64,000 bases of DNA, taken from NCBI GenBank assembly GCA_004022145.1, contig RCNU01000003.1; one strand, written 5' to 3'. Below, in pieces: positions 13,123-51,157 of this stretch. The notes beneath the pieces were generated by a model. That model had not been told where the DNA came from. It saw only the letters and a list, made by a program, of their open reading frames with translations, and made no database searches. This stretch comes from Paecilomyces variotii (Eukaryota). The stretch's first letter is position 1. Each line of letters starts with the position of its first letter. Both the position numbers and the translations under genes were made by a program.

Positions 13123-13237
13123 TGACAAGAGTGGGATTCGAACCCACGCCAGCTTACGCTGATCAGGAACTTAACTGAGAAGTTGGTATTAAGGTAGACC
13201 TTAACCTGACGCCTTGGACCAACTCGGCCATCTTGCC
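13123..13237 (-). tRNA. tRNA-Leu(AAG) with anticodon-loop intron
   Basis: Reverse complement GGCAAGATGGCCGAGTTGGTCCAAGGCG-TCAGG-TT-AAG-G..intron..CCTGA, long variable arm, GTGGGTTCGAATCCCAC T-arm, acceptor stem GGCAAGA/TCTTGTC+A. Confidence 0.93.
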
Positions 13238-28083: not shown

Positions 28084-29718
28084 CTAGTCTTCAAATGCTT
28101 CCCGGAGCTCGTCATCATACTGTTTCTTGTCACAGATTTTGCTTCGAACAACATAAGCAATATCTTTCTCCCAAAGGAATGGCATGACTAGATTGAATTC
28201 TTCGCCGTATTTGGAGCAAAACAGAGGTCGAATATGCTCGTCAAAAATTCTGAAAAGCCCAGAAGGGCTAGAAAGCGCAAGCGTGTACCAAAAAGTACCT
28301 GTCTCCCAAGTTCGGTTCATTATATCTGAAAGATACAGAGATAGTTCTGCATTATGAGATTCTCTCGATGTAGCGAGTTCGAGTTTATGCTCCTTTTCTT
28401 CCTCGGTGAGTATGTCCATAAACTCTGTCCGGATAGAATCGTATTCTGACGTCTCCAGCTGATCTATACCCTTGTTTGTCAGCCAGTGAGGGGGCATCAG
28501 CATTTCGATTGGTCTGGAGCAAGCCCACTCCAAATCAACGAGACAAGTTATATTCCATTCAGAATCCACGAATATGTTACTCTGGTGAAGGTCCGTCAGG
28601 TGAAATGTGAACGGGCCGCGACGAAAATCTCTCCTGAAAAATGGTGGGAAGACTGTTCGCATTGCACTTAGTGCGGCAAGTTGATAGGCGCAGTCTCCCA
28701 GGTCATTCACGGCGTTGGGTTGATTTCGAAATCGACTGTCATGAATTGATAGCTCGTCCAGAACGTAGGAATCAACAGTCGAATATGTGTAGTTGCGAGG
28801 CATTTCTGTCGGGATGTTCTCATTCTCCAGCTGATGGATCTCAGCCGAAAGTGGTCGATTCGATAGACATAAGAATCCATTGCTATCGATTATGAAAGAA
28901 CCGATTTTGGGCAAGGGAATCCGGGAAATGCTTAAAAGGATTCGAGAAAGGCCACGGAAGAAGTTTGCTCGCAGCTTGGCATTATGATAGCCATCTATCC
29001 ATGTTTCTGAGAGCATTTTCCCTTGGGTCTCCTCAATATACTCCAACAGAAGATAGCCAGTACCTCCTACATCACTTGAAAGCTGATCAGTGTACTGGTG
29101 ACGTACGTAGCTCGAAGGTGTCGGATATCCTAGCCACGACAGAAGCCGGCAACGTAAGATATGAAAATATCGAGCAAATCTTGGTAAGTATTCGAATCGA
29201 GTGAACTGGACGCAGTTAGCACGAGATAACGAGACAACGGGGTGCTTTCGGTTCCCCACAGTTTCGCCAGAAGACAATGCGAAGCCATACAATTTCGCAA
29301 TTGGCACATCTGAACAGTTCTCTTGAAGCCACGCATAGGCCCCTGCCTCGCATCGAATTTTCTCATCGCTATTGCCAGGGTTAAAAGCTTCACCCACGCG
29401 GTATGGAAGAGGAAACCGGACGAGGACACGACTTCCATTCCAATCATCCACTATCACGGGGATACAGACATTAAAGCTGCCATGTCGCCAGTCTTGCATT
29501 TCTCCTACATGACATTTGGCAGATGATTTTAGACCCAGATGGTGAGCAACAATGGTTCTTATCCATTCGCGCCGTTCGCTAAGATGAGTAAAGAAACGGT
29601 TCTGCTGTTCATAGTATGTCAATCGATGAAGAACATTTGATTCTAGTTCCTTGGCAACAGAGTAAGTTATCTCTTGGCCTCTAAGGAGTCGTCGTGTCTT
29701 GGGCATATCGACGGGCAT
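28084..29718 (-). CDS. Aminoglycoside-phosphotransferase/choline-kinase-like protein (probable in-frame intron ~29208-29261)
   Basis: HGSFNVC glycine loop, RFPLPY, EKIRCEAGAY, LTDLHQSNIFVD (Brenner-like), LVDLEWA. Confidence 0.85.
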   Translation of the reverse strand: MPVDMPKTRRLLRGQEITYSVAKELESNVLHRLTYYEQQNRFFTHLSERREWIRTIVAHHLGLKSSAKCHVGEMQDWRHGSFNVCIPVIVDDWNGSRVLVRFPLPYRVGEAFNPGNSDEKIRCEAGAYAWLQENCSDVPIAKLYGFALSSGETVGNRKHPVVSLSRANCVQFTRFEYLPRFARYFHILRCRLLSWLGYPTPSSYVRHQYTDQLSSDVGGTGYLLLEYIEETQGKMLSETWIDGYHNAKLRANFFRGLSRILLSISRIPLPKIGSFIIDSNGFLCLSNRPLSAEIHQLENENIPTEMPRNYTYSTVDSYVLDELSIHDSRFRNQPNAVNDLGDCAYQLAALSAMRTVFPPFFRRDFRRGPFTFHLTDLHQSNIFVDSEWNITCLVDLEWACSRPIEMLMPPHWLTNKGIDQLETSEYDSIRTEFMDILTEEEKEHKLELATSRESHNAELSLYLSDIMNRTWETGTFWYTLALSSPSGLFRIFDEHIRPLFCSKYGEEFNLVMPFLWEKDIAYVVRSKICDKKQYDDELREAFED

Positions 29719-30702
29719 GTGTTCTCATCAGGGGATCTAGCGATCTGTTGCTTTGAGAGTAATTGGGAAAGGGTCACGTGATTCAACCCCTGTCCCTGAC
29801 AGAGCAATCATAAAACGAATTTGGCCAATCAGAAATAGGATAGCTGTGCATAATAATAGGCAGGATTATGGTAGAATTCCGCATCTCGATGTCCATAGCC
29901 ACCTGTCTTCTGCGGGGCGGGCCCCAAGCACCATGGCGATGTGTCAAGAAGACTAGTATTTGGATTAGAGGAAGAGCCTTGATAACGAGCCTTTCTTCTC
30001 CGGTTTCTCCCAAGTCTCTAAATAACCATACCCCGCGTGTACTTACTGGCGCGTCAGTTATAAGCACTATTAACTTATAAGCTGCAGCCAGGGTTACAAT
30101 ACTGTGTCGCAGTGTTCCAAAGGAGTGAGCTGAGAATAGTCTAGCAACCTGCAGGTAAAAAAAGCCCTTCTTTTGAAGCCAGCATTTTCTTATCTCGCCT
30201 CTGTCAGCTTATTAACGGCAGTGCTTCTAACTATCAGTTAGTTAAGTTGGTTTCCATCTGCATCACCGCCTACTAACTAATCCTAGCTAAGTACCTGGTT
30301 ATCTAGGTAGTCAACAAATTATTAACTGCCAACTTGACCTATCTTGAAATCTAACATGCAGTATAAAACTTCAGACGTCGAAGGTATCACAGAAAGAGCT
30401 GGCATTTCTATGTACTAAGTCGAGGGAGGAAAGGTCGGCAGATAGACGCATGGTATAGAGAGACGCAGGGGGGGAGGGGCGCTGGTTGTTGATAGATCGT
30501 TTCGAGACCATATGGGCCCTGGGGGTCATATTAACTGCGTGTTGGAAGACCACCCCTGGTCTGGCAGGTAATCTGATAAGGTCAGGGTGAGAGTACTACT
30601 CTAATCACATATATATAACTATGAAGCTTACGCAGTTGGATATGTGGTCCATTTGGATGCTTAGTTCCCTTCCTCTTTATATTTGCCCTTTCACTACCTA
30701 TC

Positions 30703-32148
30703 ATGTCCACATCTCTAGAGATTGAGCAGAAATATGCTCTGGTGACCCGTCGGCTGGAGGTTCAAACTGAGACGACTGTACAGCAGTTGCATGCTGTCCT
30801 CAGCAGGCGAGAAGTAGTCAAATATCAATGGAGTATATTGAGAGCCCCCAGGCCCGACTTCTCCCTAGGTATCTATGTCACTGACCACTGTGCCACATGA
30901 ATCAGTCACGGCGCCAACAGGAAAGCGTGAGTGTCCGCGGGTGTCGATATGGATTCCAGTCTGAGAGTTGACTTGACGAACGATAGCACACATTGGATAC
31001 TTGATCCCATTGCTCAAGTTTGCTGATTTCATTCGAGCGGGTGGCGAGGTAAATCCCCTCCTCCAACTCAAGGCCGCGAGGAGCTGACCCTTTCCAGGTC
31101 ATCGTGGAACTCACCGACACGTACGCGTTCCTTGTGAACTACAAAATTCCCTGGGAACAAGTCCTTCACCGCACTGCGTACTATCAGGCTTTGATCACGG
31201 CTGCCTTGAAAGTAGTGGGGATTCCCCTGTCGAAGGTTCAAATTGTGCAAGCGTCCACATATCAGGGAACCTATTCATTTTCGGTGGACTTCTGGAAGCT
31301 TTGCGCCTTGTCTTCCCTGCATGATGTTCGGAGAACAGGCGCGGAGGTCGGATCTTCGACCATGCTAAGCCCCCTCCTCACGCCAATCCTTCAAGAATTG
31401 GCCGAGGTGCACTCAGCAGTGGATGTGCAGCTGGGCGGAAAGGACCAGGTAGGTAGCCTGACTTGGAAATTGGACAATGGCTAGCTAACTGATGCCAAAA
31501 CCACAGCGCGGCATCTTTGAGTTCGGCGAGGAGTTTCTTCCTCGGCTTGGGTATCCCAAACGGGCCCATGTCCTGAATGAAATGTTACCTGGTCTGACTG
31601 GGGACAAAATGTCCTCATCCTATGCGGCTCATACGAAAATCATGTTCCTCGATGATGCGAATACGATCCAAGAAAAGATCGCTGGAGCTGCATGCCCCAT
31701 CGGCGTAGTCGAGGGCAACGCTATCCTACCCATTGTGCAACATATTTTGATGCCGCTCAGGGAGCTACATCTGGCGGATTTCCCTCAGGCTCTTTCCGGT
31801 GAATTGGACACGGCTGATGAGGTGAGCGGCCACCGTGAAGGTGGACAGGCCCCCTTCAATGGTCTGGACGTTCAACCCGGAACCCTTTTCAGTGTCTCCG
31901 TTCGACGAGATGGAGACGGTGGCTGTGAGGAGCATCAGCACTACCGGTCGTATGAAGACCTCGAGCAGGACTATAGGGCGCACCGCATTCCTCCTGACTC
32001 ATTGAAGGCCGCCGTGGCATCTGGCCTTATCGAGGTGCTGGAGCCTTTGCGGCAGATCTATGAAAGCAGCCCGGAGTGGCGCGAGTCAGACCTGCGCGGA
32101 TACCCTGAAGATTGGCCTGTTCCAGCAGCCACTGTAGAACAGGCCTGA
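30703..32148 (+). CDS. Tyrosyl-tRNA synthetase-like paralog (class Ic fold), 401 aa; exons 30703-30832, 30906-30926, 30987-31048, 31098-31448, 31507-32148
   Basis: Spliced TAPTGKPHIGY (HIGH), LKFADFIRAG, GGKDQRGIF, LPRLGYPKRAH, PGLTGDKMSSS (KMSKS); exon lengths sum to 1206 nt in frame. Confidence 0.88.
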
Positions 32149-32716: not shown

Positions 32717-33690
32717 ATGACTCGAACAGACGACGACCGGTCGACCCCCCCTGTGACCATTGATCTGGAGCGGCTCAATACGAAGGACCACGCTGAAGCG
32801 CAGAGGCTCCTGCAAGCCGCGCAATCTCCAGGATTCTTCTATCTCGATTTTCGCAATCACGCAGCTACGAATAACCTGGCGGCGCAAACTGAGGACATCT
32901 ATCAGCTGGCGCGCCGCTATTTCGCGCAACCGAGGGAAATGAAGGTGAAGGATGTCCGAAAGGATCAGCCGGCCTCCTGTGATCGAGGGTATTGCCCTGC
33001 TATCTTCTGTTTCGCCAACCGGATTTGTAGGATGATAGGTTAACCGACATGAAATCATTAGGTATAAATTCTGCGAGAGCGACGAGTCGTTTGAGGTATA
33101 TTGTTCCTTCCAGATCGGAGCGATGGAGTCCAAGGGCTAACGAGAATGAGAATTAGATATCATACGATGAAATGAAGCAAGGAACTCTCCACCTGCCTGA
33201 GCTGCTGGGGGAAGAGGCATCCCTGCTGAACACATTTCACAATGAATGCCACTCCGCAGCGCATACGCTTTTGTCATGTCTTGCAGACATGCTTACCCTT
33301 CCCCTGGAGGACTACCATCAGGACGGGGAGCCGAGTGAGACTGGATTCAAACTCGTCGCGGAGCCATCACTAGAAAGGGCCAGTGAGGTGCAAGAAAACA
33401 AACACACCGATAGTGGCACCTTGACGATTCTGTTCTATGACAAATGGGGCCTACAGATCTGTCTCCCCACGCCTGAGAACGAATGGGTGTTTATCCCGCC
33501 TCCCCAACCTGGCTGCGCTTTGGTGCACGGGGGCAACTCGCTGCAGCGCCTATCGAACTATCAACTGCAGTCTCCGTTGCATCGTGTTACTCAGCCTCAG
33601 GATGGAGCGGCGGAGAGGTATTTTCTCTCATACTTTTTGCGACCAGCAAAGACAGTAGCGCGCCATGGCGTCGGGGATTTGCCTGATTAG
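32717..33690 (+). CDS. Fe(II)/2-oxoglutarate-dependent oxygenase (IPNS/DIOX family) #1, 3 exons
   Basis: PVTIDLERL, AAQSPGFFYL (DIOX_N); HTDSGTLTIL (HxD), SPLHRV (distal His), RYFLSYFLRP. Confidence 0.88.
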
Positions 33691-34759
33691 ATTATGTAGT
33701 TAGTTAATGATGGCTTTCTGCCAGTCGATCAAAAAGGAGAACTCCTACTTAGTCTAGACTCTACCTGGATCTTTAACAGTTAACTAAAGACAATTGGTGT
33801 ATGGATCTCGGACTCACCTGTGTTGGTCACTGACTCACGGCACAGTCAGCACTGTTCATGGTTGTTGTCAGTCTTGTGTAACGTCCGGAATAATAATCGA
33901 ATGAATTTGACGGATTCATGTGCTCTCAGGGATCTAGCGTACAATGAAAATTCAAAGCTGAAGAAGAAGAATCGACGAGAGATCTCCGACGAGGAAGTAA
34001 GTTATGCTCGGTGATTCTGCAACGCGGAGTAAACTATTCCAATTTTGTAAATTTTCAAGGCAAATAAACACCAATGATAAATAAGCTAGCGATAGAATTT
34101 CTGAGGATGAGGTTGATAAAACTGACGATATCTAAGTATGATCCAGTGAGAATTCCCCGGAGTAATGAAGTAGTTACTGGGACCTTCAGAAACTCGACCA
34201 ATAGTGTCAACAATAGACTTGATGTCTAGCAGTCCTGCTCCAGCACCACTAAGCTTACGATCATTTGCTGATCCCCCTCCTAACTCCAACCCTATCCCTT
34301 GTCGATGTCTATTATTCCGAAGGCGAAGCCTCGTCCGCGGCCATCCACCAGTCGCACAAGTTGATTTGAGCTCTGGCCAATGTTGGCGCTCCATTGGACA
34401 TGTACTACTTAGGCCTGGACACTTACACATACTCTAGGATCTTGGCTAACGTGCAGAAGTTAATCTGACGTGCAGAATTAGTCGCTCTCAACCACGCGTC
34501 CTTTATCAAACCCTATCGAATGCAGGTGCACCGAAGTAGTATTGCCCGTAGTATTCCATATGCATGATTCAAGCGGATGAAACTGTCGTGGTGGCTAACT
34601 AGGTCTGAAGAAAGCTCCTGTATCGATAGTGATATGTACAGTACTTAATTACATGATATATCTATCCTACTAGAAGAAACCACCGTGTTTCGATCACCCC
34701 CTTTGGGTGTTCCAAGTGTCATTAGTATTCCAGAAAGTGCCACAGAGGTTGATGTGAAG

Positions 34760-35958
34760 ATGTCCGACTTCAAGTTCGTGCCCACCATCGATCTCGCGAT
34801 GTTAGACAACCCGAGCTCCAGGACGCAGCTAGTGCAGCAGCTTCGTCAAGCACTGCTAGACGTGGGCATGTTTTATGTGGCCAACCCTCCATTGAGTCCC
34901 ACGGTAGTTGCGGAGGCCAAAACACAATCCGAGGCCTTTTTTGCACTCCCTTTTGCAGAGAAAACGAAGCTGGACATTGCCAATAGCCCTAGCTTTCTAG
35001 GATACGCGATGGTAAGAGCAGCATTGGACTAGATAAGATCATGGATTTATCACTGATGGCCTGGATAACTGAAGCTAGGGGCAGAGCGAACCAACAATCA
35101 GGTCGATTGGCGGGAGCATCTAACGCTCGCATCGCCTGGTCCTGAATCCATCTCCGGGCCTGTCTACCGGCGCCTTCTAGGGTCTGGTCAATGGCCGTCC
35201 GCCTCGTTGCTTCCCCGGTTTACTCCCGTTTTGCAGACACTCTTGGCCGAGTCAACGGCACTGGTAACGACTCTCCGGCGGTTGATTGCTGAGGCAATCG
35301 GGGTGGACAGTGACAAGCTGGAGTCGTTGTTTGATGCTCACCACCAGCAGTACCGAATCCGACTGATCCGCTATCCGGAGGTAGCAGCCTCCGCCGAGGA
35401 AACCCAGTCGCTAGGTGCCCATCAGGATACGTCCTTTAATACCTTAATCTTTCAGATCGGGGCACAGCACTGCCTGCAAGCGCGCAACAACCACGGCGAG
35501 TGGGTGGACTGTCCTCCGATCCCAGACCAGCCCATCTTTGTCGTCGGTCGAGGCTGCCAGGCGGCAACACATGGTCTTTGCCGGGCCCCATTCCACCGAG
35601 TGATTCCTCCTGCCCCTGGCAGCGGGAGTCGCCTCAGTATTGTGGTCACCACAGGCATCGGATATGATACCCCGCTGAAATCGCCGAAGACCAGTGAAGT
35701 GCTGTCCACGATGCGTACCCAGATTGTAGCCAATAACCCTGGGCATGAGGTGAGTCTGAATGAGGGCCTGGAGGAGGATGACGAATTCGAGACCGTGGGC
35801 ATGAAGGTCTTGCATAAGCTGGCTAAGAGTTATCCCGAGGTGACAAGACGTTGGGTAAGTAATTTGGTGGTTTGGGGATCGAAAACCGGATTAGTTTCAC
35901 GCTGACATGTCTCTATATATACCAGTACCCCGAACTGTTGGTTGAACCCTCCCATTGA
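34760..35958 (+). CDS. Fe(II)/2-oxoglutarate-dependent oxygenase (IPNS/DIOX family) #2, 3 exons
   Basis: VPTIDL, DVGMFYVAN, NSPSFLGY, DWRE; GAHQDTS (HxD), APFHRV, SRLS (RxS); ends WYPELLVEPSH*. Confidence 0.88.
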
Positions 35959-36921: not shown

Positions 36922-37955
36922 ATGATGTGGACAATTCAGGATTCACCGCGCCCTCCTCCGCTACTTGTCCTTGGCCTGAGTCGTACAGGCGGCACGTGTG
37001 AGTCTCCATCCTTAAGCCTTTGACAGACCTACTGATAGCATGCGTCGACAATAGCTCTAGCAACCGCGCTGGGTCTGCTCGGCTACCAAAGATTGTACGA
37101 TCTTGATGATGTCGCCCACGGAGGTCCAGAACACGCCGACTTCTGGCTTCAAGCCGTCCAAAAGAAACTATCCGGAAAGGAGGAATTCAGCTATGATTTC
37201 GACCAGCTCTTACATGGATATGATGTAGGTCTCGTGTCCCCTATTCCCTGGATCCCTGATCATTCTTCTCAGCCATGGGTTTGCTCTTATGACGATGGTT
37301 TATTGGGCGATCTAATATACACAGGGCGTCCGGAACATCCCCTTCGCAGCTTTCGCAGCTGAGCTGATTGCCCACTATCCATCCAGCAAGGTGATTCTTC
37401 CCACTCGGGATGTCGACAGCTGGCACATGTGAGTGATGTCTGCACCGCTCGCAAGTTTTAAAGCACCATGGCGCGATATGTCAAGACTTACAGGGAACCA
37501 AATACAGCTCCTGTCTTACAACTGTCTACCAGCGCTCTAGAGACCCGATCTTACAGTTCCTGGCCCTGTTCGATACCAATTCGCGAGTGTATGCCAATCT
37601 CCTTCGGGGCCTCCAGCAGATCCTGTACAAGGGCGACTTTCCGAACTATGGGAAGACGGCGTTTTACGAACACAATGAATATATTCGGCGCAACGTAAAG
37701 CCAGGAAATCTTCTTGAGTACAATGTGGAGCAAGGTTGGGAGCCCTTATGTGACTTCCTTGAAAAGGAAGTACCAATGTGTGCCTTTCCGCGAAACAATG
37801 ATCGGAACATCTTCTGGCAAGGGTGTCGGAAAAGGGATAAACGGGTGGCGAAAAAGGTGCTGATTCGTGCTCTCCCACTCTGTAGTATGCTCCTTATTGG
37901 TCTGGTGAGCTGGCTGTTACTGGGGGCAGGAGATCCAATTGACAGGGTCAAATGA
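36922..37955 (+). CDS. Sulfotransferase-family (Sulfotransfer_4-like) P-loop protein, multi-exon
   Basis: LVLGLSRTGG motif, FDQLLHGYD, ELIAHYPSSKVILPTRDVDSW, NLLEYNVEQGWEPLCDFLEKEVP..FPRNN, C-terminal hydrophobic helix. Confidence 0.8.
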
Positions 37956-38806
37956 ATCTCCCAGATAAGCTGTCGGATCCTGCCTACAGGCAGACCTCCT
38001 GTCGGGTTTCTCCCACGCCTTCTAGCTCCACTCACAGAGACAAATAGGCTGAGATAGTTGCTAGAGAATCCAAGCTCAGCGAGCTTCGCTCCAGATAAGC
38101 TTCTTGGGCAAGAACATCATTTTCCCAAGTATTAGTTATCCAAATAACTTTTTTGAGAAGATTAGCTTGACAAATCGCAAGCTATCATGCTGCGAGAACA
38201 ATGCACATTACATAAAACCAAGATATAGTTATGTTTCTTTGTATAATACATACGCGGCCCTTGGTATGTGGTTCCTGCCAGCTGGCTCTGATATTTAGCC
38301 AGTGTCCTTTGTTATTTTTCTCTTCCCCCGTTCTTCCTTTCTATACATATATGTCCGCTTGATCGAATCAATTGCGTTCGGCCCTTTACACCTTACCTAA
38401 GCTGGAGAAAATCTAGCATAAAGCTAGGAGCGTGAGATATATAATCACGTTCCCCAGTTAGCATGTGACATAATAGCGCTCAGTATAGGAGACTAGCGAT
38501 TAGTCTTAATACCATACTCCTGCTTACCATACTATTTGAATATGATCTATTGTTCAAGTTTGCCAATTTAATATATTGTACATATATTCATACTATCACG
38601 GACCCATATTGTTCCGCCCCCGATCTCCCAAAGTACCTACCCAAAACAAACCCCTCTTTCCCTTCCCTCCTTCTAAATTTAATGTACTCGTAGAGTGGCC
38701 TATCTACTTCGATAAACTACCTTGAGACTGTTATAGAAGACCACTAAGGTATTATTGTGGCCTATCCCCCGTCCGCTTTCTTCCATCCATATCGTCAGCG
38801 GTGGAA

Positions 38807-39894
38807 ATGGATGCATCCCGAGATACTGCGGTCGAGGCATCGGCCTATTCGACAGATCAAATCATTGCCTGGCTCAAACATATCCGCCTCCCGAATTCAT
38901 ATACAGCGTATATTGACGACCCGGGGAGCTTCCCGAAGACTTATGAATCGCTCCAGACAGTGATGAGATGTCAGATTTCTCGATTTCCATATGAGAATCT
39001 CTCCGTGCATTATTCACCGACCCATATCGTTGATATTCGCCCCGAGGTCCTCTATGAGAAACTGATGGGTCACAATGGGGCCAAAGGACGAGGCGGCTAC
39101 TGTATGGAACTCAGCATTTTTTTCCATCACATGCTCCGTGGCCTGGGATTCCACGTATACATGACCGCCGTCCGAATCCGCCCCCGGACTGACGGGGTGC
39201 CTGGGGGAGAATATGGAGGATTGTACGTCCTTCTATTATACGATCTTCCTTATCTACCCACCTGACAAAAGATTCCCGGACAGCTAATGTGCATGATAGT
39301 ACCCATATCAACAACATTGTGCATCTGCCTTCCGGAAAGAGATTCTCCGTTGATGTTGGGTTTGGTGGAGATGGCCCTATCAGCCCACTTCCCTTGGACG
39401 AACCAGGGCGAGCCATTCCAAATATCGGCCGGCAGGAAGTTCGACTCATCCAAGACTACATCCCCAGACAGAGATTCCCGGAACCGAAGCTCTGGATTTA
39501 CCAGTACCGTAACGGGCCTGAGCAGGAATGGAACTCGTTCTATAGCTTTGCCGAAATGGAATTTTTTCAGGATGATTTTGAGGTGATGAATTGGTTTACC
39601 AGTGCAAAGAGCTTACACCGCTGGACCGTGCTAGTGGTGCGATTTCTACGGATGGCCGAAGACGTACTTTTTTCAGCTCGTTCTGACTTACCGCTAGACC
39701 AGGACATCACTATTACTGGTAAAGTCATGTTGGTGGACAATGCCATCAAAGTCAACCTGGGCGGCAAGACGCGCGTCGTGCACACGCTGAGCTCAGAAAA
39801 GGATCGACGCCAGGCACTCAAAGATTACTTTGGCATTTCTTTAACAGATGAAGAAGCGCGGGGTATCATAGGGTGGGATCAGGCACTCAGTTGA
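38807..39894 (+). CDS. Arylamine N-acetyltransferase (Cys-His-Asp triad), 1 intron
   Basis: FPYENL, GRGGYCMEL (Cys), THINNIV (His), VDVGFGG (Asp). Confidence 0.92.
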
Positions 39895-40661
39895 TCCGAT
39901 AGTTATCTACCATGAACAATTTCTTATGTAAGAATTCAGGGGCAAAGTGTTGTTAGAGTGAATACTAGACTTATTTGATTTCTCTCTCTCTCTCTTCAGT
40001 TTCCATAACTCATTGACAGTTCTATATTCAGCTTGGTCAGGCTTGAGGTAAAAGTATATTGTGCAACCCCATTAATACTAATTATCTGGTGACCAGGGTT
40101 CTGATTTCATCGGCGCGGCTGGAACCGAAGGCCTATTATTATTACAAAGAAACACCAGGAGTCTACCAAGCGATACAGCTTGATGAATAAGGCGAGTTGC
40201 AACTGTTGTGACATTCTCTCACTTATTGTGGCGCACCGTCTCCTGCATCAGGAAGGTCAGCGGATGCAAGTTGTCAGACCAACACACTGCCCCCCATGTA
40301 TTAATTGCAGCATGGGTTCTTATCCTCATTAGGTGGGCTGCTTCTTCGGGTCGTCGTGCTAGACATTCTGGACCTCGTAGGATCGTTAGCTCTCTGGGGT
40401 TCCCATCCCATCTAATTCTGATTGGAATAACATATCAGCAACTCCTGTCCTAGTATCTTTCTGTAATTCTAGGGGATCCCTCCCCATCATTCGGGACGCC
40501 CTAGTAACAGTATGGGGAAACCAGTTCGGGTACAGTACAACTGAAATGTACTCCTGGTCTTGTCAGGATTGCATGAAGTGAGGTGAATACATATTGAGAC
40601 CAGGGTGCGTGGCACGATTTATCTCATCTGCTCCCGACAGATCGACGGCCAACCGACCTCA

Positions 40662-42259
40662 ATGTCGCTTTCACCTCATTCAGTGACGAGAAGAGTGTAT
40701 ATGGAGTCCAAAGGCGAGCCGTTAGTTGTTGATCGGATCATCCCAATGGAACCAGATGACAAGACAACACCTGGACACCCTCTCGACAGCGTTGTGGAAA
40801 CAACACCGGTCGTGATAATCGACTTCGATGAGTCCATCCAACACCCTCACAATTGGCCGAATGTCCAACGATGGTCCATCCTGATCCTCAACACTCTGAT
40901 CAGCCTCCTGGTGAACCTGTCCACAACGATTGTAGCTCCCCTGCTGGAGACTATCTCAGCAGAATTTCACATGGACCCCCAGGTGGAAGGACCGCTGGTG
41001 ATGTCGAGCTATGTGCTGACCCTCGCACTCGGGCCCTTGCTCCTGGCGCCCTTCGGGGAGCTATATGGGCGCGTGGTCCTGATACAGTGCGGCCTGCTAG
41101 TATATCTGGTGTTCAATCTGGCATGCGGATTTGCAACGACCAAGGCCCAGCTCATCGCCTTCCGCGTGTTGGCGGGGATTGGGAGCGGAGCGGCCCCCGT
41201 GGTAAGTCTTGGATCGCTTCCTCACTATTATTCTATGTTTTCCTGCTCAGAGACTCGGTGCAGGTGGGCATCGCCATGATTAGCGACTGCTTCCGCAATG
41301 ATGAACGAGGGACCGCCTTGGGGGTCTTGAACATGGCTTTTATTCTGGCTGCTCCCCTGGGGGCCATCGTGGGAGGATTGGCCGCCCAATCTACGTCCTG
41401 GCGATTCATTTTCTTCGCACCCTCCATCGCGGCGGGATTGCTCGTCCTCGTTGGGCTCTTTGTGTACCACGAATCCTATCCACCGGTCATCCTCTCACGC
41501 AAGAAAAGACAATTCCAGCACGACGGCCATCTCGTGTGCAAAACGCCCTATGACGATCGGCACCCGACCATCGCAGACCTCTACTATAAGACCATCATCC
41601 GACCCGTATACTTCCTCACCACGCAGCCCATCATTCAGGTCCTCTCGCTCTACACGGGCTATATTTACGGCTTGACGTATCTCATCTTCTCCACCTTTAC
41701 CAGCTTGTGGGAACAGCAATACCACGAAACAGCCTCGATCGCTTCATTGCACTACATCGCCGCAGGGATCGGTTATTTCATCGGGATTGTCGCCTGCATC
41801 CTGTTCGCGGATCGAATTTACCGTGGGCTGAAAGGGAAAAACAATGATATCGGGCGACCAGAGTTCCGGATCCCGATGATGTCTGTGAGTGCTATCCTCA
41901 TCCCGACGAGCCTCTTCTGGTATGGCTGGACGGCACAAGAGCACATCCAGTGGGTGGTGCCAAATCTGGCGATTGTCCTCACCATGTGTGGCTGTACCAT
42001 TGTCTTTCAATGTACGACGGCCTACTGTATCGAAGCCTACCCACTGTATGCGGCGAGTGCCTCCGCAGCGTCCTTTTTATGCCGGGGGCTCTGTGCTTTT
42101 GGGTTTCCCTTATTTGCACCCAGCCTGTATGCACGGCTGGGGTATGGCTGGGGCGATAGCATACTAGGGTTTGTGGCGCTGATAATTAGCGGGCTGGTGC
42201 CCGTGGTGCTGTGGAAATTTGGGGTTCGACTGCGGAAAATAAGTAGCTATGCCATCTAG
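40662..42259 (+). CDS. MFS drug:H+ antiporter (DHA1-like), 1 intron; start uncertain (40662/40701/40746)
   Basis: HPHNWP, GPLLLAPFGELYGR, AFRVLAGIG, ISDCFRNDERG, WRFIF, ESYPPVIL, PEFRIP, LYARLGYGWG. Confidence 0.9.
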
Positions 42260-42420: not shown

Positions 42421-44334
42421 ATGATAGATGTATCAAGGGCATCATATGATATTCAAAACATTATCTAGTTTACATTCCATTTCAGTTGATTTTGGAAATA
42501 CAGTGGATTCATCCTTGTGGGCGTGGCAATTAGTTAACTAGGTAACTACTTCCTATGGACATGCTGATTTGTAACCTAGCCCAGACCAAATTGGTTCACA
42601 GAAAAGATAAGACAGCAAAATATTCCATCCTCAGACTACAGCCAAAATATTTTCTTGTTGCCTTTGCTGATCTATCAAAGTGGTTTAACCGGATATTGAG
42701 GTTAGGAAGATCGGATCTTACTCCAACGACTTACTTCTCGTTTCTAGCAATGCCCGATCATGCTGAAGATGGTGATTTTAAGCAGCCCCTGTTGGGAAAG
42801 GTTGATGATAATAATAATAATAATAATAATGGTTTGGTGGGCGCCAACAATAGAGAAAATCGGAGAGATTAAGGTGACAAGCGTCATCTCGGACTATTCT
42901 CCACCGCTCTTCTCCTGTAAGTTGTTTCTTAGACATGTTACTTTCCTATTCCTGAGTTTCTCTTTTTGTTTTTTTTTTTTTCCCTTTCTCGAAATAGCTT
43001 ACATCCGACCATATCTCACGACCTTGTTTTCTTTCGGTGCCCCTAGGGGCTCCAGTAGTGGTCGCCCGCGCCAGCAGCCAGCTTAGTCAGCAGAGTAGTG
43101 GCCAGATAGATCAGTTCAGCTCGATTGAGCCCCTAGATAGTTCCTCAATCAAGCATCTTCGTCAGCTCCAAGATTTTCCTTTTACATGGTCTTCAGCTTC
43201 ACTGCCAAGCTGTTAATCTTTCCGTACCTCCTATTTGAGTGGGAGGCATAAAAGCGATAATTTTGGGTAAGTTCTTGACAAGACTAATTACTTTGCGGCT
43301 CATCTTGTATCATATATATATATATACAGTCATAGCTGACTAGGCAGAAGTAGCTTAGAGTCGAGGTCATGGCGAGTACCTAAGCCGAATAGGGAATTTC
43401 TATAGTTATAGTAGGTACCTACTTTAACAATAACGAGAAGGATTGAAGACTACTTAGTACGTACATTGAACCTGCTGGGTTCCAGAGAGCTGCTATTCCA
43501 ATTGTAGTGGCAAAGTTTCAAGCTGGGAATTATGTCGGCGCCTAGAGCTTACCTTGCATAGTGTGATTGCGTATGCATGCCTCAGAGAGGCCAAGAAAGA
43601 CACCTAGAGAATAGGTGTTTTAGTCGAGTGGTAAGGTATATCAGATTCAGCCATTTAAATAGTCTTGAGGTCCCTGACAGACAGTGTTTTCAACAAGTGG
43701 TAGAGAACGCACCGGAGACCCCGGCCTGTTACCTGACTGTCACCTGCTGGAAATCAGCCACTAGGGCTGACAGATGCAGAATACGAATCCTACTGTTGTT
43801 AGCTGTGAGGGATACCTTGCTTGAAAGCTTAATACTAAATGCAACTGTCATGAAAGATGTTGTCGACTCCATCTGACGTGCATCAGCCCCTGGCTTTGGA
43901 GGGTCATATGGTTATTATCAAAAGTTAGCATAGCATAGAACTTTGGCTGGGGGAGAGGAGGGGGCGGAGCAAAATCGTGAGTATATTAAGAAGGCTGAGA
44001 TATTTGTATCTCAGCTCTGGTCTAGTTTAGCCATGGACCCGTTTGGAGATAAAGCACATAAGGGAAGTTAGTGGACTACTGTAATAGCTTTACAAGAAAG
44101 GTTGATAACCAATGGATGACAGGCAATGGTGGTCTTGCTCTTAGCCCTTGCAAGCACTTCAAGCTCAATAAATCAGGTCTCTGGTTTGGAACATGTACAG
44201 ATAGATAGATGGCCCCATGTCTTTTGCCATTGGCCCACATATATAACAGGACTGATTGCAACATTCTGGCGCAATCTGAGCAGTTTCTTTTGTGATTCCC
44301 TCCACACTGGGGTGCAGCAAGAATTTGCTTCTAG

Positions 44335-46515
44335 ATGGATATCGCGATCTGTATCCCCCTAGCTCTTCTCTATGGAGCGTGCGCGCTTCTCCTTATCCAC
44401 GGCCTAGGCTTCCAACTGCATATGCGGACCATAAAGAACAGTGAATCCTTCACATCCCCAATCGATATCCAGGATGGTCGTTCAGGTCCCTCAGGACAGG
44501 GATCGAATGCAGACCGCCTGACTATATCTCAGCAATATGATGAGTATAAGGAGATGTATTTCAAACTCCAGAATGTGGAACGGCATCCGGAAGTGATGCC
44601 GCGCGCCAAACATCTTCTACTTGCGTTCCTGTCTGAAGCAATTCTTTGCGCCCATGCGCAGCATAGTGCAATCCTCGCCATTGAGCGATTTTCCCCCAGC
44701 GCGATCGCCGCATTTATGCGCCGCGAGCTGGATCACATCACGCATCAATGGCAACAGTATCTTCAGCGGCGAAAAGAGGGCCACGCCCGGGAGTTGTTTT
44801 CAGATGCGGATGCCGCAAAACGGTGGCTCGTAAAAAAGGCCCCAGTCAAGCTGGTGGACGGCGCGTGGCTTGGTCAAGTCCACACCGTGGGGATTCCATT
44901 TGCATACCGTTCCATTACCAAGGACGCCTGGCAGGTGCTCTCGGAGGAGCTTGGGGACGGCTATCTGGAGAAGAACCATGTCCACGTGTATCAGAAGCTA
45001 ATGCGTCAAATTGGCGTGGATCTCCCGGCTGCCGACTCGGCGGAGTTTATACAAGCCATGGACAATGATCCTTGCATTTGGAAAGGTGCAATTGCGCAAC
45101 TTCTCATAGCCTTGTTTCCAAGTGAATTCCTGCCGGAGACTCTGGGATTCAATATGCATTTCGAGATGTTGACCCTGGAAACCATGGTGGCCGCTACGGA
45201 GCTGCGCGAGGTTCACCTCGATCCCTCCTATTTCAATTTGCACATTTCAATCGACAACGCCGATTCGGGACATATGGCTATGGCGAGTCACATTGTCATG
45301 AAATACCTGTCGACCGTGCAGGCGGTCGAGGGAGCAGATGCCGCCCAGCAGGCCTGGAAGCGCGTCCAGGCGGGATTTGTGCTCTCCAAGCATCTCCCGT
45401 CCCACCAGCGCAGTTTCCCCAACCAAGGTCCCCTTGCCATAGATCTTATGAGGATCTTTCAAGCTAAATCCGTTGCATGCCATCGACTGCATGACAACTG
45501 CCGAGTGAGATTGGGCGGCCGGTCACTGAGCACCTGGCTCAACCCGGACCATTTCCAGCGGGAGCGATGGCAGACGGATTTTCTGGACTGTCTCAGCAAC
45601 GATAGGCTGTGGGTGCGAAAAGGTGACAGTGCAAGCAGCCGACTAGTCCAGCAATGTGTCTGGGGTGGACCCATGTTTGGTGCGTTCACCGATTCTGAAG
45701 TGGCCACGATCAAGAACTGGATCGATAGTTTGGCACCCGATAGTCCAATGACATATTGGCATTTCATCGGATGGTCTTGCAGCTCTGATGAATCCCAAGT
45801 CAGCGCCAGTGGCCCAGTCAATCTCGAAACCGTTTTCCGAGACGCGAGGATTTCTCCTAGTCACCTTCCTCCCCCAGTCCGGAGCATCGATCTCAGCTTT
45901 GTCCCAATCCTCCATAAATTGATCCCACTTTGGTTCGTCCACCCATGTCTGCTCGAGTCGTGTCTACGGGTTCCAGTTAGGACCACCAACTCGATCGGCT
46001 GTTCGGTGGTTCGTCTTCTTCGCGCCCAGTATGGCTTTGATGAAACCACTGGGATCGCCGGAATGGATGAGATACGCCGGGCAGGATGGGTCGATTTGAC
46101 TGAGATTGGCATGGAGATTATCTCTCATGTCGAGGACATGCCTTCCAAACCCAAGGATGTCGCGGATGTCCTAGAGCGGTGGCCGTCGGCATTTGCAGAG
46201 ACGATGCTCGCTTTGGCAATGCGACCCCAGCAGTGTTTCTGGTCCCTGCTGGGTCTCACCCAAGCATTCGTTCATCTGCACCACTGGCTTGCCCTGTCAC
46301 CGTTGCTTTCGCGGAGGACGAGAGCTATCGTCCACCGTATTGCACTGCAGGAACAAGTGAGTTTGGATACGTGTATGAAGGGACTTCAGGAGCAGGATCT
46401 GGCATATGAGGATTTTTGGAAAGGGTATGAGCTTGGCCGGGTTGAAATTGACGGTTGTTTTGAGAAACGCAAATCAATCTCTTCGCTTCAATCCACTATG
46501 AGAAAAGGAGCCTGA
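44335..46515 (+). CDS. Heme-oxygenase-like diiron oxidase (HDO; 'iron-containing redox enzyme' family), intronless, 726 aa
   Basis: APVKLVDGAWLG, WQVLSEELGDG..KNHVHVY (E..H), LGFNMHFE, YFNLHISIDNADSGH (H..D..H), WGGPMFGAF. Confidence 0.8.
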   Translation: MDIAICIPLALLYGACALLLIHGLGFQLHMRTIKNSESFTSPIDIQDGRSGPSGQGSNADRLTISQQYDEYKEMYFKLQNVERHPEVMPRAKHLLLAFLSEAILCAHAQHSAILAIERFSPSAIAAFMRRELDHITHQWQQYLQRRKEGHARELFSDADAAKRWLVKKAPVKLVDGAWLGQVHTVGIPFAYRSITKDAWQVLSEELGDGYLEKNHVHVYQKLMRQIGVDLPAADSAEFIQAMDNDPCIWKGAIAQLLIALFPSEFLPETLGFNMHFEMLTLETMVAATELREVHLDPSYFNLHISIDNADSGHMAMASHIVMKYLSTVQAVEGADAAQQAWKRVQAGFVLSKHLPSHQRSFPNQGPLAIDLMRIFQAKSVACHRLHDNCRVRLGGRSLSTWLNPDHFQRERWQTDFLDCLSNDRLWVRKGDSASSRLVQQCVWGGPMFGAFTDSEVATIKNWIDSLAPDSPMTYWHFIGWSCSSDESQVSASGPVNLETVFRDARISPSHLPPPVRSIDLSFVPILHKLIPLWFVHPCLLESCLRVPVRTTNSIGCSVVRLLRAQYGFDETTGIAGMDEIRRAGWVDLTEIGMEIISHVEDMPSKPKDVADVLERWPSAFAETMLALAMRPQQCFWSLLGLTQAFVHLHHWLALSPLLSRRTRAIVHRIALQEQVSLDTCMKGLQEQDLAYEDFWKGYELGRVEIDGCFEKRKSISSLQSTMRKGA

Positions 46516-47857
46516 AGTCATGGCCGGTTTGTTATTAGGCAAATACTACAGGAGCATTTGAAACCTCGGAAATGAGATAACTAATCATAGCAAGAAATTG
46601 TGGTAACCCTGAATATCATCACTCTACCACAGTTAGTAGTTGTCGTTGGCGAAACGATATAAAATGAAGATAACAGTTCATTTTACGCTACTCACTCGCG
46701 CCTTCATCTGATTGGACGTCGTCATCTGGATCTCACGTGCTCTTTACTGCCTTCCTTTTTCGTCTGATCAGGTGATCTTCCCTCCCTAATAATCAAAACA
46801 AACAACTATTTTCTACCTGTCTAACCTATTATTTTACTACCTCTACTAATCTGCCAGCTTTATGGGATTTCCTAATCGATATACCCCATTCGCTCTACTA
46901 GTTATCTATTATACGTCGATTTAACCCAATAGGGGAGACTATAGGCGATCACTTACAGGTTCCTGTAAGGTTAAGATATGATGAATTCGAAGGTTTAGGC
47001 ACACAATACAGTACGATCATTTCATTAATGTATACCGGAGCCTGAATCCAGGCCTCTGAATACCCAGATGAAGTATTGGATTGTCCACCCTTTCCCTTTC
47101 CAGCCTCTCTGCCAAGCTCCCAGCACCTGCGGTACTTCTTGCATCGGGCATCAGACCTGCGGCAGCATTCAAACCACCCATGGGGTTGTTGGCGCTGGAA
47201 CCGTTGGAAGAACGGACCCGCGAGTACTGATACGTAATCAGTATACCATCCCAAAAGGCACAACGACGAAACCCTCTTTCCGGATTTCTTCCGACCTGAT
47301 CCGCAGCGATGGCTTGGCCAGCCGCTGGAGCACTATTGTTGGCTTTTGTGAGGGGTCCTAGGTGAGTAAGTTAATTGCTGCCCGGCAAGCTGCATAATCA
47401 GTATTTACTTATCTAGAGGAGGGGTAGGGTTTAGCGTCATTGCAATCAACAAGGATTGAATCAGGATTTCCAGATGAAAAATTGGCCCACTGAATATGTA
47501 ACGGGTTATTGCAGCAGACACGGGAGAAAATTGAATTGAGAAGTAGAATAAACTTCATGTTCACTTAGTTTCCAAAGCCTTGGACTAAATTCATGGTCGA
47601 TGTCGGAAAAGGTCAACTGAAATAATAAAATGACGGCTCCTTAGAGGTCTGGCCCCTAAGTCTGATATAAAATCATTCCATATTCGCGCTGGTATGTGCA
47701 TATGGAATAGCCATTTAGATCATTTCCAAGGAACTCACACAAAACCGAGTATACAGGTCACTTGACCCTTCGCGTAGGGTCTTAAATATCGTATCGTTCG
47801 CCCTTGCCTTACGCTATTTTCATCATTGCTTCCGTCCCATCCCAATGTACCGATACA

Positions 47858-49363
47858 ATGGGGTTCTATCTATCGAAGCCCCAGCTTCAAAAACGGCACT
47901 CTGGTCCCATTGATACGGCCACTAGAGACCGAAAGACTTATCAGCAGAGCTGCAGCGGATTATCTGTTTTCGATAGTCTATATTCGACACAGTCCCTCAT
48001 GCCTGTTACCCATGCTCATGACCCCTTAGCCCGCGAAAAGGAAGATGAACACCCCACATTCCCTTTGTTGTCTTTCATCTGGGACCCTGAATCCCCTCCC
48101 GAGTACCCAGAAGATGAGGATGCGATCAAATTTCTTCCCTTGGAGAGGGGTTTCCAATGGGTGAGCCAATTACCCGGCTGTCGTCAATCAAAGCATTGGG
48201 GAAGCACAAAGAAGGTGACCATGCAGTTTCTGGATGAAATTCACACAAGTATGAAAAATAGTGTGTCAAAATTACCAGAGGAGTTGCAGCAGAGATCCGA
48301 TAATATTGAACGTGCAAAAAAGGAGCAAGATCTTATAGAAACAGCAGTAAGATCAATAACACACATGATGCCCGATGCAAGCGCGGTCAGGTCAGGAATC
48401 ATTGCACAGTCTATGTTAATCATTTTCCTCCACAATGGTATGTAATACTTTTAGGTATTTTGTTACATATTTCTATAACTCTAATAACTAACTTCTTAGC
48501 AGATGTGGTTGAACTAGATCCTTCGCAAGCAGTACGTCTTCACCATGAATGGAGTAGAGTCTCTCAATTTAATCATGAGGCATCCATAGGGCCACACAGT
48601 CGCAGATGAAATTATGCATCTCTGGAGAGAAAGCACCGATGGGGAGCTGCAGATTCCGGAAGCAACACTTCAGGGGGGGAATTTCCTTCACAGTTTCACA
48701 AAGCGTGTTCTGGAAGAAGACCCAATCAGCGGCAAGGAGCTCTTGAAAGGCGCTTACCGATGGGTGGTCTTCACTCGAGGATATAAGACTATCCCGCCGA
48801 GCACTTTTGAGAGCCTGCGGAGCTATCTAGATTACCGCGATATTGACATTGGGAATGAGTCAGTTCATCTGATTAACTCTTTATACAATGATATACCCAT
48901 TGAGTAATGTGAACGCTAACCACATTGAATTATCAGTCTCCTCCTAGGACAAGTGGCCTTTGCTTGTGACGTCCGGTTTTGTGAAGAGGACAAAGCTATA
49001 TTGAAAAACCTGATCCGGCTCTGGGAAGACCACATTTCTCTTGTCAATGATCTATACTCCTTTCACAAAGAATACGAAAAGTCAAAATCTGGCTGGCTGA
49101 TACTGAATGCCATTGATGTGATCCGGAAGACGAATGGGGTTTCGACCTTCACCGCGAAGAAAATAGCCCGAGAAATTATATTCGACCTGGAAATCCAGTT
49201 TTACAAAGAATTTAAGAGACTCCTGGATCATAGCTTGCTGAACTCTTGTCAGGAAAAGTTGGCGAAAGGAATCGCGAAATGTATGGCAGGGCATGTCTAT
49301 TACTCTGTCACCAACCCTCGTTATAGTGGACCAGGAACAACAGTATTCAATAGCACAGATTAG
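47858..49363 (+). CDS. Class I terpene synthase (sesqui-/diterpene cyclase fold), 4 exons
   Basis: Spliced FLHN|DVVE (DDxxE-like), YLDYRDID effector Arg, NDLYSFHKE NSE motif, C-terminal PRY. Confidence 0.82.
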
Positions 49364-50212: not shown

Positions 50213-51157
50213 ATGGTGGCAGTTACAAAGGCTATGCGGATCAGTATGTTTTCTTCTTGATAGATAGAACTATGTTCTGTATTTCGCATCGTGTGTACTT
50301 CTGGATATATTGGGGCCACATGCTAACATCGTTTGATGAATATTTAGGGAATCCGGCTCTCTTGTATGTCTACGATCGAGTCCCACGACTTCATCACTTT
50401 TCTTCGATTGCTTTTGGGGAGGGTTCTATGATGGAGTAAACACTGTTATATCTCAACTGACAAGCTGGCTATGAAACAGCATCTGCGATGTTCAAGAGAA
50501 GTTCAGAACTGCTATTTATGAATACCCCAAGTTGTGAGTTTCTTTCAACCCCCCCTCCTTTTCTTTTCTCAACCTGACATGAAAAAAACGCTCTTTAGGA
50601 TCGCTACATCTGAGAAACTCCTTAAAGCCTCCGCCCCGCTTCAAATTCCTGTCTTCGTAACGACGCAAAACCGCGCTCGTCTAGGGGAAACTGTCTCCGA
50701 ACTACAGCCATACCTCACCGGCCCAAACCTGCGCGCCGACGTGGACAAGACTTTATTCTCGATGATCACGCCTAAGATTCGCGCTCTGCTCCCGGAGACA
50801 TCCCCTACTACCAGCAACGGTAGCTCTGCGGCTGCTTCTGGAAACAATACGCCGCTTGACGTTATCATTGTGGGCATCGAGACGCACATCTGCGTCACCC
50901 AGACGACCTTGGATCTGCTGGCTCTTGGACACAGAGTATATGTTGTTGCCGATGGAGTGAGTAGTTGCAATGAGGGAGAGAGGGGGATTGCATTGGCGCG
51001 GTTGCGAGATGCAGGCGCGATCGTTACGACCAGTGAGAGTCTTCTCTTTGAGATTCTAGGAGATGCAAAGAGGGGAGAGTTCAAGGCTGTTAGTGGACTG
51101 GTGAAGGATACGAAGGAGCAGACGAAGGGGGCTTTGGAGGTTTTCTGTAAGATCTGA
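50213..51157 (+). CDS. Isochorismatase-family hydrolase (ISOC1/YcaC-like), with microexons
   Basis: ICDVQEKFR, TTQNRARLGETV, DKTLFSM, GIETHICVTQT, VADGVSS, TTSESLLFE. Confidence 0.88.

Follow-up and report, generated by a model that had tools for sequence, protein, structure and literature searches.

A transcribed tyrosyl-tRNA synthetase paralog with a changed tyrosine pocket and anticodon hairpin heads a run of secondary-metabolism-type genes in Paecilomyces variotii

The window analyzed here is a stretch of 64,000 nucleotides from contig RCNU01000003.1 of the Paecilomyces variotii assembly GCA_004022145.1. As shown in Table 1, it contains a five-exon gene for a paralog of tyrosyl-tRNA synthetase (TyrRS). 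This gene heads a same-strand series, in which nine more genes of secondary-metabolism type have transcripts in the same RNA runs. The paralog keeps the catalytic motifs of class I aminoacyl-tRNA synthetases (aaRS), while the residues that hold the tyrosine hydroxyl group and those that read the anticodon base G34 of tRNA-Tyr are replaced. We tentatively propose that it has become a ligase of the pathway encoded around it.

Table 1. Features of the paralog gene and of its surroundings, in positions of the window.
Feature	Position	Strand	Residues	Basis and remarks
TyrRS-paralog gene	30703..32148	+	401 aa	Five exons: 30703-30832, 30906-30926, 30987-31048, 31098-31448, 31507-32148 (stop included); Pfam PF00579
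Gln at tyrosine-OH ligand site	30826..30828	+	42	Human Tyr39, yeast Tyr43; HMMER alignment to 1n3l and 2dlc
Micro-exon, 21 nt	30906..30926	+		Joints 30832>30906 and 30926>30987, GT..AG, in RNA contigs
HIGH motif, as HIGY		+	52-55	Class I catalytic motif; kept
TPILQELA	31381..31404	+	166-173	Thr166 = yeast Tyr170, Gln170 = Gln174, Ala173 = Asp177
Gln-Arg-Gly	31446..31512	+	188-190	Across last intron; yeast Gln192 and Arg193 kept, Lys194 replaced by Gly
KMSSS (class I KMSKS motif)	31606..31620	+	222-226	Kept
Insertion before hairpin	31795-31887	+	~285-315	Shared with basidiomycete TyrRS
RRDGDGG hairpin loop	31903..31923	+	321-327	Replaces RPEK[F/Y/H/W]GG; G34-stacking aromatic absent
Hairpin Cys and His residues	31924-31941	+	328, 331, 333	Cys328, His331, His333
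IPPDSLK	31987..32007	+	349-355	Replaces HPxDLK; Ser353 at yeast-Asp321 column, Asp352 just before
2OG-Fe(II) oxygenase A	32717..33690	+		DIOX_N + 2OG-FeII_Oxy (Pfam); introns 32988-33060 and 33094-33154 spliced in RNA contigs
2OG-Fe(II) oxygenase B	34649..35905	+		Pfam; spliced contigs
Sulfotransfer_4-family gene	37039..37955	+		Pfam PF17784; three spliced introns
Arylamine N-acetyltransferase family gene	38726..39894	+		Pfam PF00797; intron 39223-39299 spliced
Major facilitator superfamily (MFS) transporter	40587..42259	+		Pfam; intron 41201-41262 spliced
Transcribed stretch between MFS gene and oxidase	42546-43876	+		Intron 43266-43349 spliced; frames match no Pfam family
Haem-oxygenase-like "iron-containing redox enzyme"	44335..46515	+	726-aa frame	Pfam PF14518, E 9e-31; RNA contig 43562-46590
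Terpene-synthase-like gene	47786..49363	+		Terpene_syn_C_2, E 6e-9 on 48929-49360; intron 48437-48501 spliced
Isochorismatase-family hydrolase	50522..51157	+		Pfam PF00857
Weak phosphotransferase (APH) frame	28084-29724	-	546 aa	Intron-less; 22.7 bits against Pfam cut-off of 23.2
Doubtful tRNA-Arg(GCG)	9711-9804	-		ARAGORN only
tRNA with long variable arm	13123-13237	-		~35-nt insert in anticodon loop; Rfam only

The exons of the paralog were obtained from a coordinate search for exons bounded by GT and AG together with the database protein P0003 (P. variotii, 401 amino acids), which is 99% identical to the window protein and differs from it at 3 residues. All four introns have GT..AG borders and were seen removed in RNA contigs from runs X2 and/or X3, which belong to two studies, X2 being labelled with the organism and X3 being a food-fermentation metatranscriptome. 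The gene is therefore spliced and transcribed. With the split codons that flank it, the micro-exon encodes ITAPTGKP directly before the HIGH motif and so brings back the conserved W-x-TAPTGKPH stretch ahead of it. A model in which the intron is read through, giving SILRAPRPDFSL before HIGY, is false and was ruled out by P0003 and the RNA joints; the read-through peptide looks plausible and could lead a reader of the letters alone to assume an additional loss at the catalytic site. Strain differences recovered from the contigs comprise at least 10 synonymous and at least 4 non-synonymous changes, with a ratio of non-synonymous to synonymous polymorphism (pN/pS) of 0.13 among those listed, and the pattern looks like purifying selection. 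The non-synonymous differences listed are E6G, L284H, F305I and R348H, the last of which adjoins the IPPDSLK motif. One X2 contig (31504-33155) leads from the last exon of the paralog through a 568-nt spacer into oxygenase A, whose introns are spliced out in it. The two genes have overlapping or read-through transcripts, one contig not being proof of a single transcript.

A total of 203 family proteins were compared. As standard TyrRS, 165 rows were selected for keeping human Tyr39 and Asp173 (119 basidiomycete sequences together with zygomycete, other eukaryotic and archaeal-type ones), so the presence of these two tyrosine-hydroxyl ligands in 165/165 rows follows from the selection rule. The roles of the equivalent yeast residues Tyr43 and Asp177, and of Tyr170, are given in PMC1934993, on the structure of yeast TyrRS with its tRNA (articles are cited here by PMC number, from partial texts). 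Both hydroxyl ligands are replaced in the window protein, by Gln42 and Ala173. At the positions of the three alpha-amino ligands (yeast Tyr170, Gln174 and Gln192) it has Thr166, Gln170 and Gln188, so that two of the three are kept. Across 136 standard TyrRS, 55 sites show a conservation of 90% or more; 36 paralogs keep 33 of these and have lost the other 22. The kept sites include His52 of HIGH, KMSSS, Lys232, Gln170, Gln188 and Arg189, and the lost ones Tyr39, Gly41, Tyr166 and Asp173. HIGH and KMSSS occur in every full-length paralog, and alignment A1 has no variation at K222, M223, S224 and S226. These comparisons show that the class I ATP machinery and the backbone ligands Gln170 and Gln188 have been kept.

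The pocket itself was not replaced uniformly. Across the paralogs, Tyr39 is changed to Q, L, F and others, Asp173 to A, G and others, and Tyr166 to T or C. By subclade, Q, L, H, F, V, I or A is found at position 42 and A, G, L, M, S or C at position 173, and because the pocket differs in this way among subclades, different substrates are suggested. Other residues are invariant and specific to the paralogs, namely Tyr80, Gly190 and Trp379, the first replacing His80 in 35/35 paralogs with a residue at that column. The AlphaFold2 model of the window protein had a mean predicted local distance difference test score (pLDDT) of 91.3. Its best Foldseek match was yeast TyrRS (2dlc_X), with a target-normalised TM score of 0.92 over 388 columns covering both domains, in agreement with the earlier statement that the C-terminal domain is retained. 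A search of the ESM Atlas with the paralog returned generic TyrRS clusters only. By fold and Pfam the window protein is thus a member of the TyrRS family, and judged by its tyrosine ligands it does not qualify as a TyrRS.

The sequence-only reading had described RPEKFGG as changed to RRDGDGG and HPxDLK as changed to IPPDSLK. Both replacements were found as described, at residues 321-327 and 349-355, in the last exon and inside 31880-32010; in the AlphaFold2 model the hairpin is flanked by strands at 316-321 and 329-334. That reading had also named F261, H283 and D286 of Methanocaldococcus jannaschii as the residues that read G34, a role which we take F261 and D286 to have. For His283, and for the yeast residues, the role is documented in PMC1934993: yeast Phe296 stacks on G34 and Asp321 hydrogen-bonds it, and the other face of G34 touches Pro320 in yeast, where His283 stacks in M. 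jannaschii. The window protein has Asp325, Asp352 and Ser353 at the positions of Phe296, Pro320 (or His283) and Asp321. These positions are strongly conserved in the standard rows. F, Y, H or W stands directly before G[GVAS] in 159/165 of them, with a hairpin fixed at 15 residues in 160/165; Asp occupies the yeast-Asp321 column in 162/165, preceded by Pro in 163/165, and Lys323 is present in 165/165. Only the His283 column is looser (His in 151/165), yeast itself having Ser.

Paralog hairpins, by comparison, are 10-33 residues long and the standard motif is absent from them. An acidic residue at the Asp321 column is found in none of the 17 rows of the subclade of the window protein. In this subclade the C-terminal domain is conserved at its scaffold residues and variable at positions 320-332 and 350-353. 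Loss of the triad is derived in the paralogs because their nearest standard relatives, the basidiomycete TyrRS, carry it. In the altered hairpin of the close relatives P0005, P0006, P0013, P0018, P0019 and P0027, a Cys-x-Cys pair precedes a His or Tyr, and Cys and His residues are found there in the window protein too (Table 1). They could form a small metal or redox site at the former pocket of the anticodon base.

Changes were also found at the acceptor end of the tRNA site. Twenty-one basic columns are conserved in standard TyrRS and only 4 of these are lost in the paralogs: Arg151, which contacts G72; Lys194; the Lys adjacent to the aromatic of the hairpin; and a Lys that falls in a 3-residue deletion. 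Yeast Lys194 (the Lys190 column) is Gly in 36/36 paralogs, against Lys in 126/133 standard rows with a residue there; in M. jannaschii, Lys175, next to Arg174, contacts G72 (PMC1934993). The Arg151 column of the paralogs holds mostly Asp, Ala or Glu, with K/R in 6%. At its acceptor-stem contacts the window protein has Arg150 and Arg189, and Gly190 in place of Lys. The C-terminal region has a mean net charge of -7.6 in the paralogs against -3.7 in standard TyrRS, and of -14 in the window protein. Alignment shows the residues that identify tRNA-Tyr to be gone: the hairpin aromatic, the Asp and Lys194, together with Arg151 in most of the family. A changed pocket combined with continued recognition of tRNA-Tyr would cause mistranslation of Tyr codons, and we infer that selection against such errors could account for identity contacts having been lost at both ends of the tRNA site.

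A first count of the two motifs by regular expression in 36 diverse standard rows gave 19/36 and 23/36 matches. The misses exposed a distinct type of housekeeping TyrRS in Pezizomycotina, the other misses being long multi-domain or divergent eukaryotic proteins. Seventeen proteins of this type were collected (P0240, P0350-P0357, P0252, P0362, P0276, P0363, P0266, P0367, P0288 and P0307). They comprise nine proteins of lichen-forming Teloschistales, two of Fusarium avenaceum, one each of Cadophora gregata and Discula destructiva with one more member of the cluster of each, and two further clusters; the sampling covers three classes of Pezizomycotina, with no row from a Eurotiomycete and hence none from P. 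variotii. The C. gregata protein is annotated as a cytoplasmic Tyr-tRNA ligase. Tyr39 is kept in the rows with a complete N-terminus, all but one of which have a yeast-like HCGY; DQRK is found in 16/17, together with KMS[AS]S. The five rows present in alignment A2 also keep Tyr166, Gln170, Asp173 and Gln188. Judged by their active site, the 17 proteins are real TyrRS.

Nevertheless, both the aromatic-Gly-Gly hairpin and the HPxDLK Asp are missing from these enzymes (P0240, P0252, P0363, P0367 and relatives), as they are from the paralog. In the hairpin they have ERRAAEDVEPLIY, ERRDGESPVY or DRTRDELPELVY, and at the second motif TPQ[LVMI][LI]K. The aromatic hairpin was found in 0/17 and the Asp in 0/15, two gene models being broken at the Asp site. 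The likeness extends to the letters, ERRDGE in the Fusarium TyrRS resembling VRRDGD in the window paralog. In other respects the two groups differ: the Pezizomycotina TyrRS keep Tyr39, Tyr166, Asp173, the Arg-Lys pair and a Lys-rich tail, are without the insertion of about 25-30 residues and form a separate clade (100/100). Their existence suggests that these fungi set the identity of tRNA-Tyr without the G34 anticodon contact. It also limits what had been concluded from the motifs. The substitutions in the paralog are real and derived, but uncoupling from tRNA-Tyr is not proved by triad loss alone because intact Pezizomycotina TyrRS lack the triad too. The possibility raised earlier, that these residues vary among true fungal TyrRS, has thus come true in part, in these 17 proteins.

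In an 85-row tree, 38 paralog rows formed one clade (SH-aLRT 100). In a 60-row tree with an archaeal-type root, the 26 paralogs were monophyletic (100/100) and grouped with the TyrRS of Basidiomycota (100/100), nearer to Agaricomycetes than Tilletia is (99/95). The named paralogs are all from Pezizomycotina. Orthologues of the window gene include P0004 (Arthroderma uncinatum), P0005 (Purpureocillium lilacinum), P0006 and P0007 (Aspergillus avenaceus) and P0011-P0016. Paralogs and basidiomycete TyrRS share the insertion of about 25-30 residues before the hairpin. Measured from Asn259 to Tyr334, the median length was 61 in the paralogs (43 rows) and 67 in basidiomycete TyrRS (121 rows), against 37 in Pezizomycotina TyrRS (6 rows) and 36 in other standard TyrRS (109 rows); the motif G[TS][LVW][FL][ST] was present in 30/43, 98/121, 0/6 and 4/109 rows, respectively. 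A basidiomycete origin of the family is suggested by the free trees and the shared insertion only. In the approximately unbiased (AU) test, a single clade of paralogs and Pezizomycotina TyrRS was not rejected (delta lnL 35.7, p 0.0565), the group tested having been named only after the tree was seen. The family may stem from an ancient transfer out of a basidiomycete or from an ancient duplication with later losses. If the basidiomycete affinity holds, the triad was lost in the paralogs independently of its loss in Pezizomycotina TyrRS.

The window frames scanned with Pfam, among them those of the genes that follow the paralog (Table 1), showed no adenylation, ATP-grasp, nonribosomal peptide synthetase (NRPS), polyketide synthase (PKS), cyclodipeptide synthase (CDPS) or Fem/DUF2156 domain. 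The paralog is therefore the sole recognisable carboxylate-activating enzyme among the scanned frames. Sequence search of solved structures gave no match for the haem-oxygenase-like frame, and for oxygenase B it gave only generic 2-oxoglutarate (2OG) oxygenases. Beyond the isochorismatase gene lie housekeeping genes (thiamine synthesis, eIF5). Directly upstream of the paralog, on the opposite strand, lies the APH-like frame, a possible member of the cluster. ARAGORN and Rfam found no dedicated tRNA gene in the cluster and no tRNA gene within 17 kb of the paralog; the tRNA at 13123-13237 is likely of the Leu or Ser type with an intron.

From the pocket, the motifs and the neighbours together, we favour, with somewhat less than even confidence, a TyrRS paralog that has been neofunctionalised to activate an amino acid with ATP and to transfer it directly to an intermediate of the pathway. 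The enzyme would still form an aminoacyl-adenylate, the amino acid being one other than tyrosine because neither tyrosine-hydroxyl ligand is left and the pocket is altered at neighbouring residues too. On this evidence the likeliest substrate is an aromatic amino acid that is modified or lacks the hydroxyl group. tRNA-Tyr would not be served, since its identity residues are lost, and the foreign amino acid would thereby be kept off it. The terpene synthase and the oxygenases would supply the acceptor, in the form of an alcohol, amine or N-hydroxy group, and transfer of the aminoacyl group to it would form the ester or amide bond of an NRPS-free cluster. Tailoring of the product would fall to the acetyltransferase, the sulfotransferase-like enzyme and the hydrolase, and its export to the MFS pump.

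A wider version covers the whole family, and we regard it as doubtful. A basidiomycete-type TyrRS would have entered, or been retained in, Pezizomycotina and radiated into tRNA-independent ligases, with pockets particular to each subclade, that link metabolites made without NRPS. Such ligases would make the key ester, amide or N-O/N-N linkage, and the window enzyme would attach its amino acid to an oxygenated terpenoid or to an N-hydroxylated intermediate from the haem-oxygenase-like oxidase.

Several observations weigh against direct transfer, and many of them fit an enzyme that charges a tRNA with a non-tyrosine amino acid, recognizing the acceptor arm and the backbone and not reading the anticodon, after which a pathway transferase takes the aminoacyl group. 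An aminoacyl-tRNA is a stable and diffusible carrier and an adenylate is not. The C-terminal domain is whole and conserved in the subclade: its mean majority fraction is 0.65, and that of the catalytic domain 0.73. Of 38 paralogs, 29 retain yeast Arg193 and 28 Lys323, and Asp or Glu stands one position before the Asp321 column in 10/17 subclade rows against 1/165 standard rows. The window protein is moreover the only compared paralog with Arg at the Arg151 column (Arg150). These features of the protein would all be compatible with continued RNA binding. Triad loss is not diagnostic of uncoupling and so is weak evidence for it, true Pezizomycotina TyrRS apparently working without the G34 triad. 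Acceptor-stem elements, C1-G72 and A73, are stronger identity determinants of tRNA-Tyr than the anticodon (PMC1934993). A C-terminal GNAT domain (PF13302) was found in 4/11 long members scanned (P0047, P0048, P0054 and P0213), the GNAT-fused subclade including Orbilia, Drechslerella and Arthrobotrys, and an acyltransferase-family (NAT) gene lies in the cluster. The fusion recalls this separate N-acetyltransferase-family gene of the window. A fungal precedent for tRNA as the carrier in an aaRS-transferase fusion is ErdS (AspRS-DUF2156; PMC9437257). Membership of the cluster was judged from strand, family type and contigs of the same runs, whose depth gives no ranking of expression. The substrate and the acceptor given above are guesses.

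We nevertheless consider charging of a tRNA, although it is the main alternative, unlikely. A foreign amino acid on tRNA-Tyr would mistranslate, Lys194 has become Gly in all 36 paralogs and Arg151 mostly Asp, Ala or Glu, and the C-terminal domain carries more negative charge than that of standard TyrRS. The Pfam scans of the window, free of CDPS and of Fem/DUF2156-type transferases, and the 17 kb around the gene, free of tRNA genes, point the same way. A decaying duplicate kept for binding, as a non-catalytic regulatory or ligand-sensing pseudo-enzyme, would explain the long terminal branch of the window protein (0.43-0.50 against 0.15-0.20 for its nearest relative), the very acidic and, in the model, partly disordered insert at 285-312, and the position of three of the four listed non-synonymous strain differences in the C-terminal part. 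It is very improbable: HIGH and KMSSS are present in every full-length paralog, pN/pS is low, the gene is spliced and transcribed, and the family is old and diversified, with Tyr80, Gly190 and Trp379 invariant. We give still less credence to a self-resistance or back-up TyrRS, a drug-insensitive copy in a cluster that makes a TyrRS inhibitor. An aaRS duplicate with intact ATP motifs inside a biosynthetic-looking cluster is what one would look for, and duplicates of this kind have precedents in the cluster-borne LysRS of cladosporin (PMC10320164) and in the indolmycin-resistant TrpRS (PMC9437257). However, both tyrosine-hydroxyl ligands and yeast Tyr170 are replaced, Lys194 is lost, and the pocket varies among subclades, which would be unexpected for one conserved substrate.

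On the family-wide version, these ligases would be the first full-length derivatives of a class Ic synthetase to work without tRNA, and genome mining would gain a new handle. As a ligase gene the paralog would mark fungal clusters without NRPS or PKS that mining tools miss or file as resistance genes. Engineers of TyrRS mutate the same two pocket positions, and the variants found in nature would provide a catalogue of TyrRS pockets with altered specificity. Taken alone, the anticodon observation is of modest interest; more is to be had from the family, the cluster context and the triad-less housekeeping enzymes. The last of these bear on tRNA-Tyr identity in the largest fungal group and may matter as much.

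Compared with yeast TYS1 (2DLC) and human YARS1 (1N3L), the paralog shares the two-domain fold, PF00579, HIGH, KMSSS and about 40% identity. Residues in common with the yeast enzyme include Gln174, Gln192 and Arg193. Yeast Tyr43, Asp177, Tyr170 and Lys194 (now Gly) are replaced, and Phe296, Pro320 and Asp321 are absent. Unlike both enzymes, the paralog has an extra acidic loop and secondary-metabolism neighbours. Derivatives of synthetases that build metabolites are already known from CysRS (MshC), from MetRS-like and SerRS-like proteins and, far diverged, from the CDPS. MshC, the mycothiol cysteine ligase, is a class I relative of CysRS that hands an aminoacyl-adenylate to a small-molecule amine and not to tRNA. 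It has the adenylate-forming motifs in common with the paralog and differs in being bacterial, derived from CysRS and faithful to its cognate amino acid. Such direct transfer is the mechanism that we favour for the paralog. In cupin-fused hydrazine synthetases of the Spb40/Tri28 type, a MetRS-like domain activates an amino acid as its adenylate and, with no tRNA involved, joins it by an ester bond to an N-hydroxylated partner. That domain is bacterial, MetRS-derived and cupin-fused. The context of the window cluster can be likened to it in its haem-oxygenase-like oxidase and its member of an arylamine/hydrazine-type acetyltransferase family; N-N chemistry is not claimed for the cluster. In valanimycin biosynthesis the in-cluster synthetase VlmL feeds aminoacyl-tRNA to the transferase VlmA. 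ErdS and VlmL/VlmA would share with the paralog a dedicated, non-translational aminoacyl transfer, and one subclade of the paralog family likewise has a fused domain, GNAT. ErdS and VlmL keep their cognate amino acid and tRNA recognition, whereas the paralog has changed both.

The CDPS, of the AlbC family, have a catalytic domain related to TyrRS and TrpRS and serve secondary metabolism, and the sequence-only reading had drawn a parallel with them. They do not activate amino acids with ATP, are without the C-terminal tRNA-binding domain and consume ready-made aminoacyl-tRNAs (PMC3105412, PMC9437257). The parallel is weak because the CDPS lack the ATP motifs that the paralog keeps; with HIGH, KMSSS and a full C-terminal domain, the window protein is not a CDPS. 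A table in a 2022 review, in the part available, lists TyrRS duplicates as tRNA-charging copies only (TyrZ and a fused TyrRS), with no synthetase-like offshoot (PMC9437257). A term search of the available portions of PMC12616698 and PMC10320164 gave no mention of TyrRS. No description of a fungal TyrRS-like biosynthetic family was found in the full-text literature searched, subscription papers and supplements being outside this scope. By analogy with these systems, the paralog would work like MshC or the hydrazine-synthetase domain if it is tRNA-free, and like ErdS or VlmL if it is tRNA-dependent.

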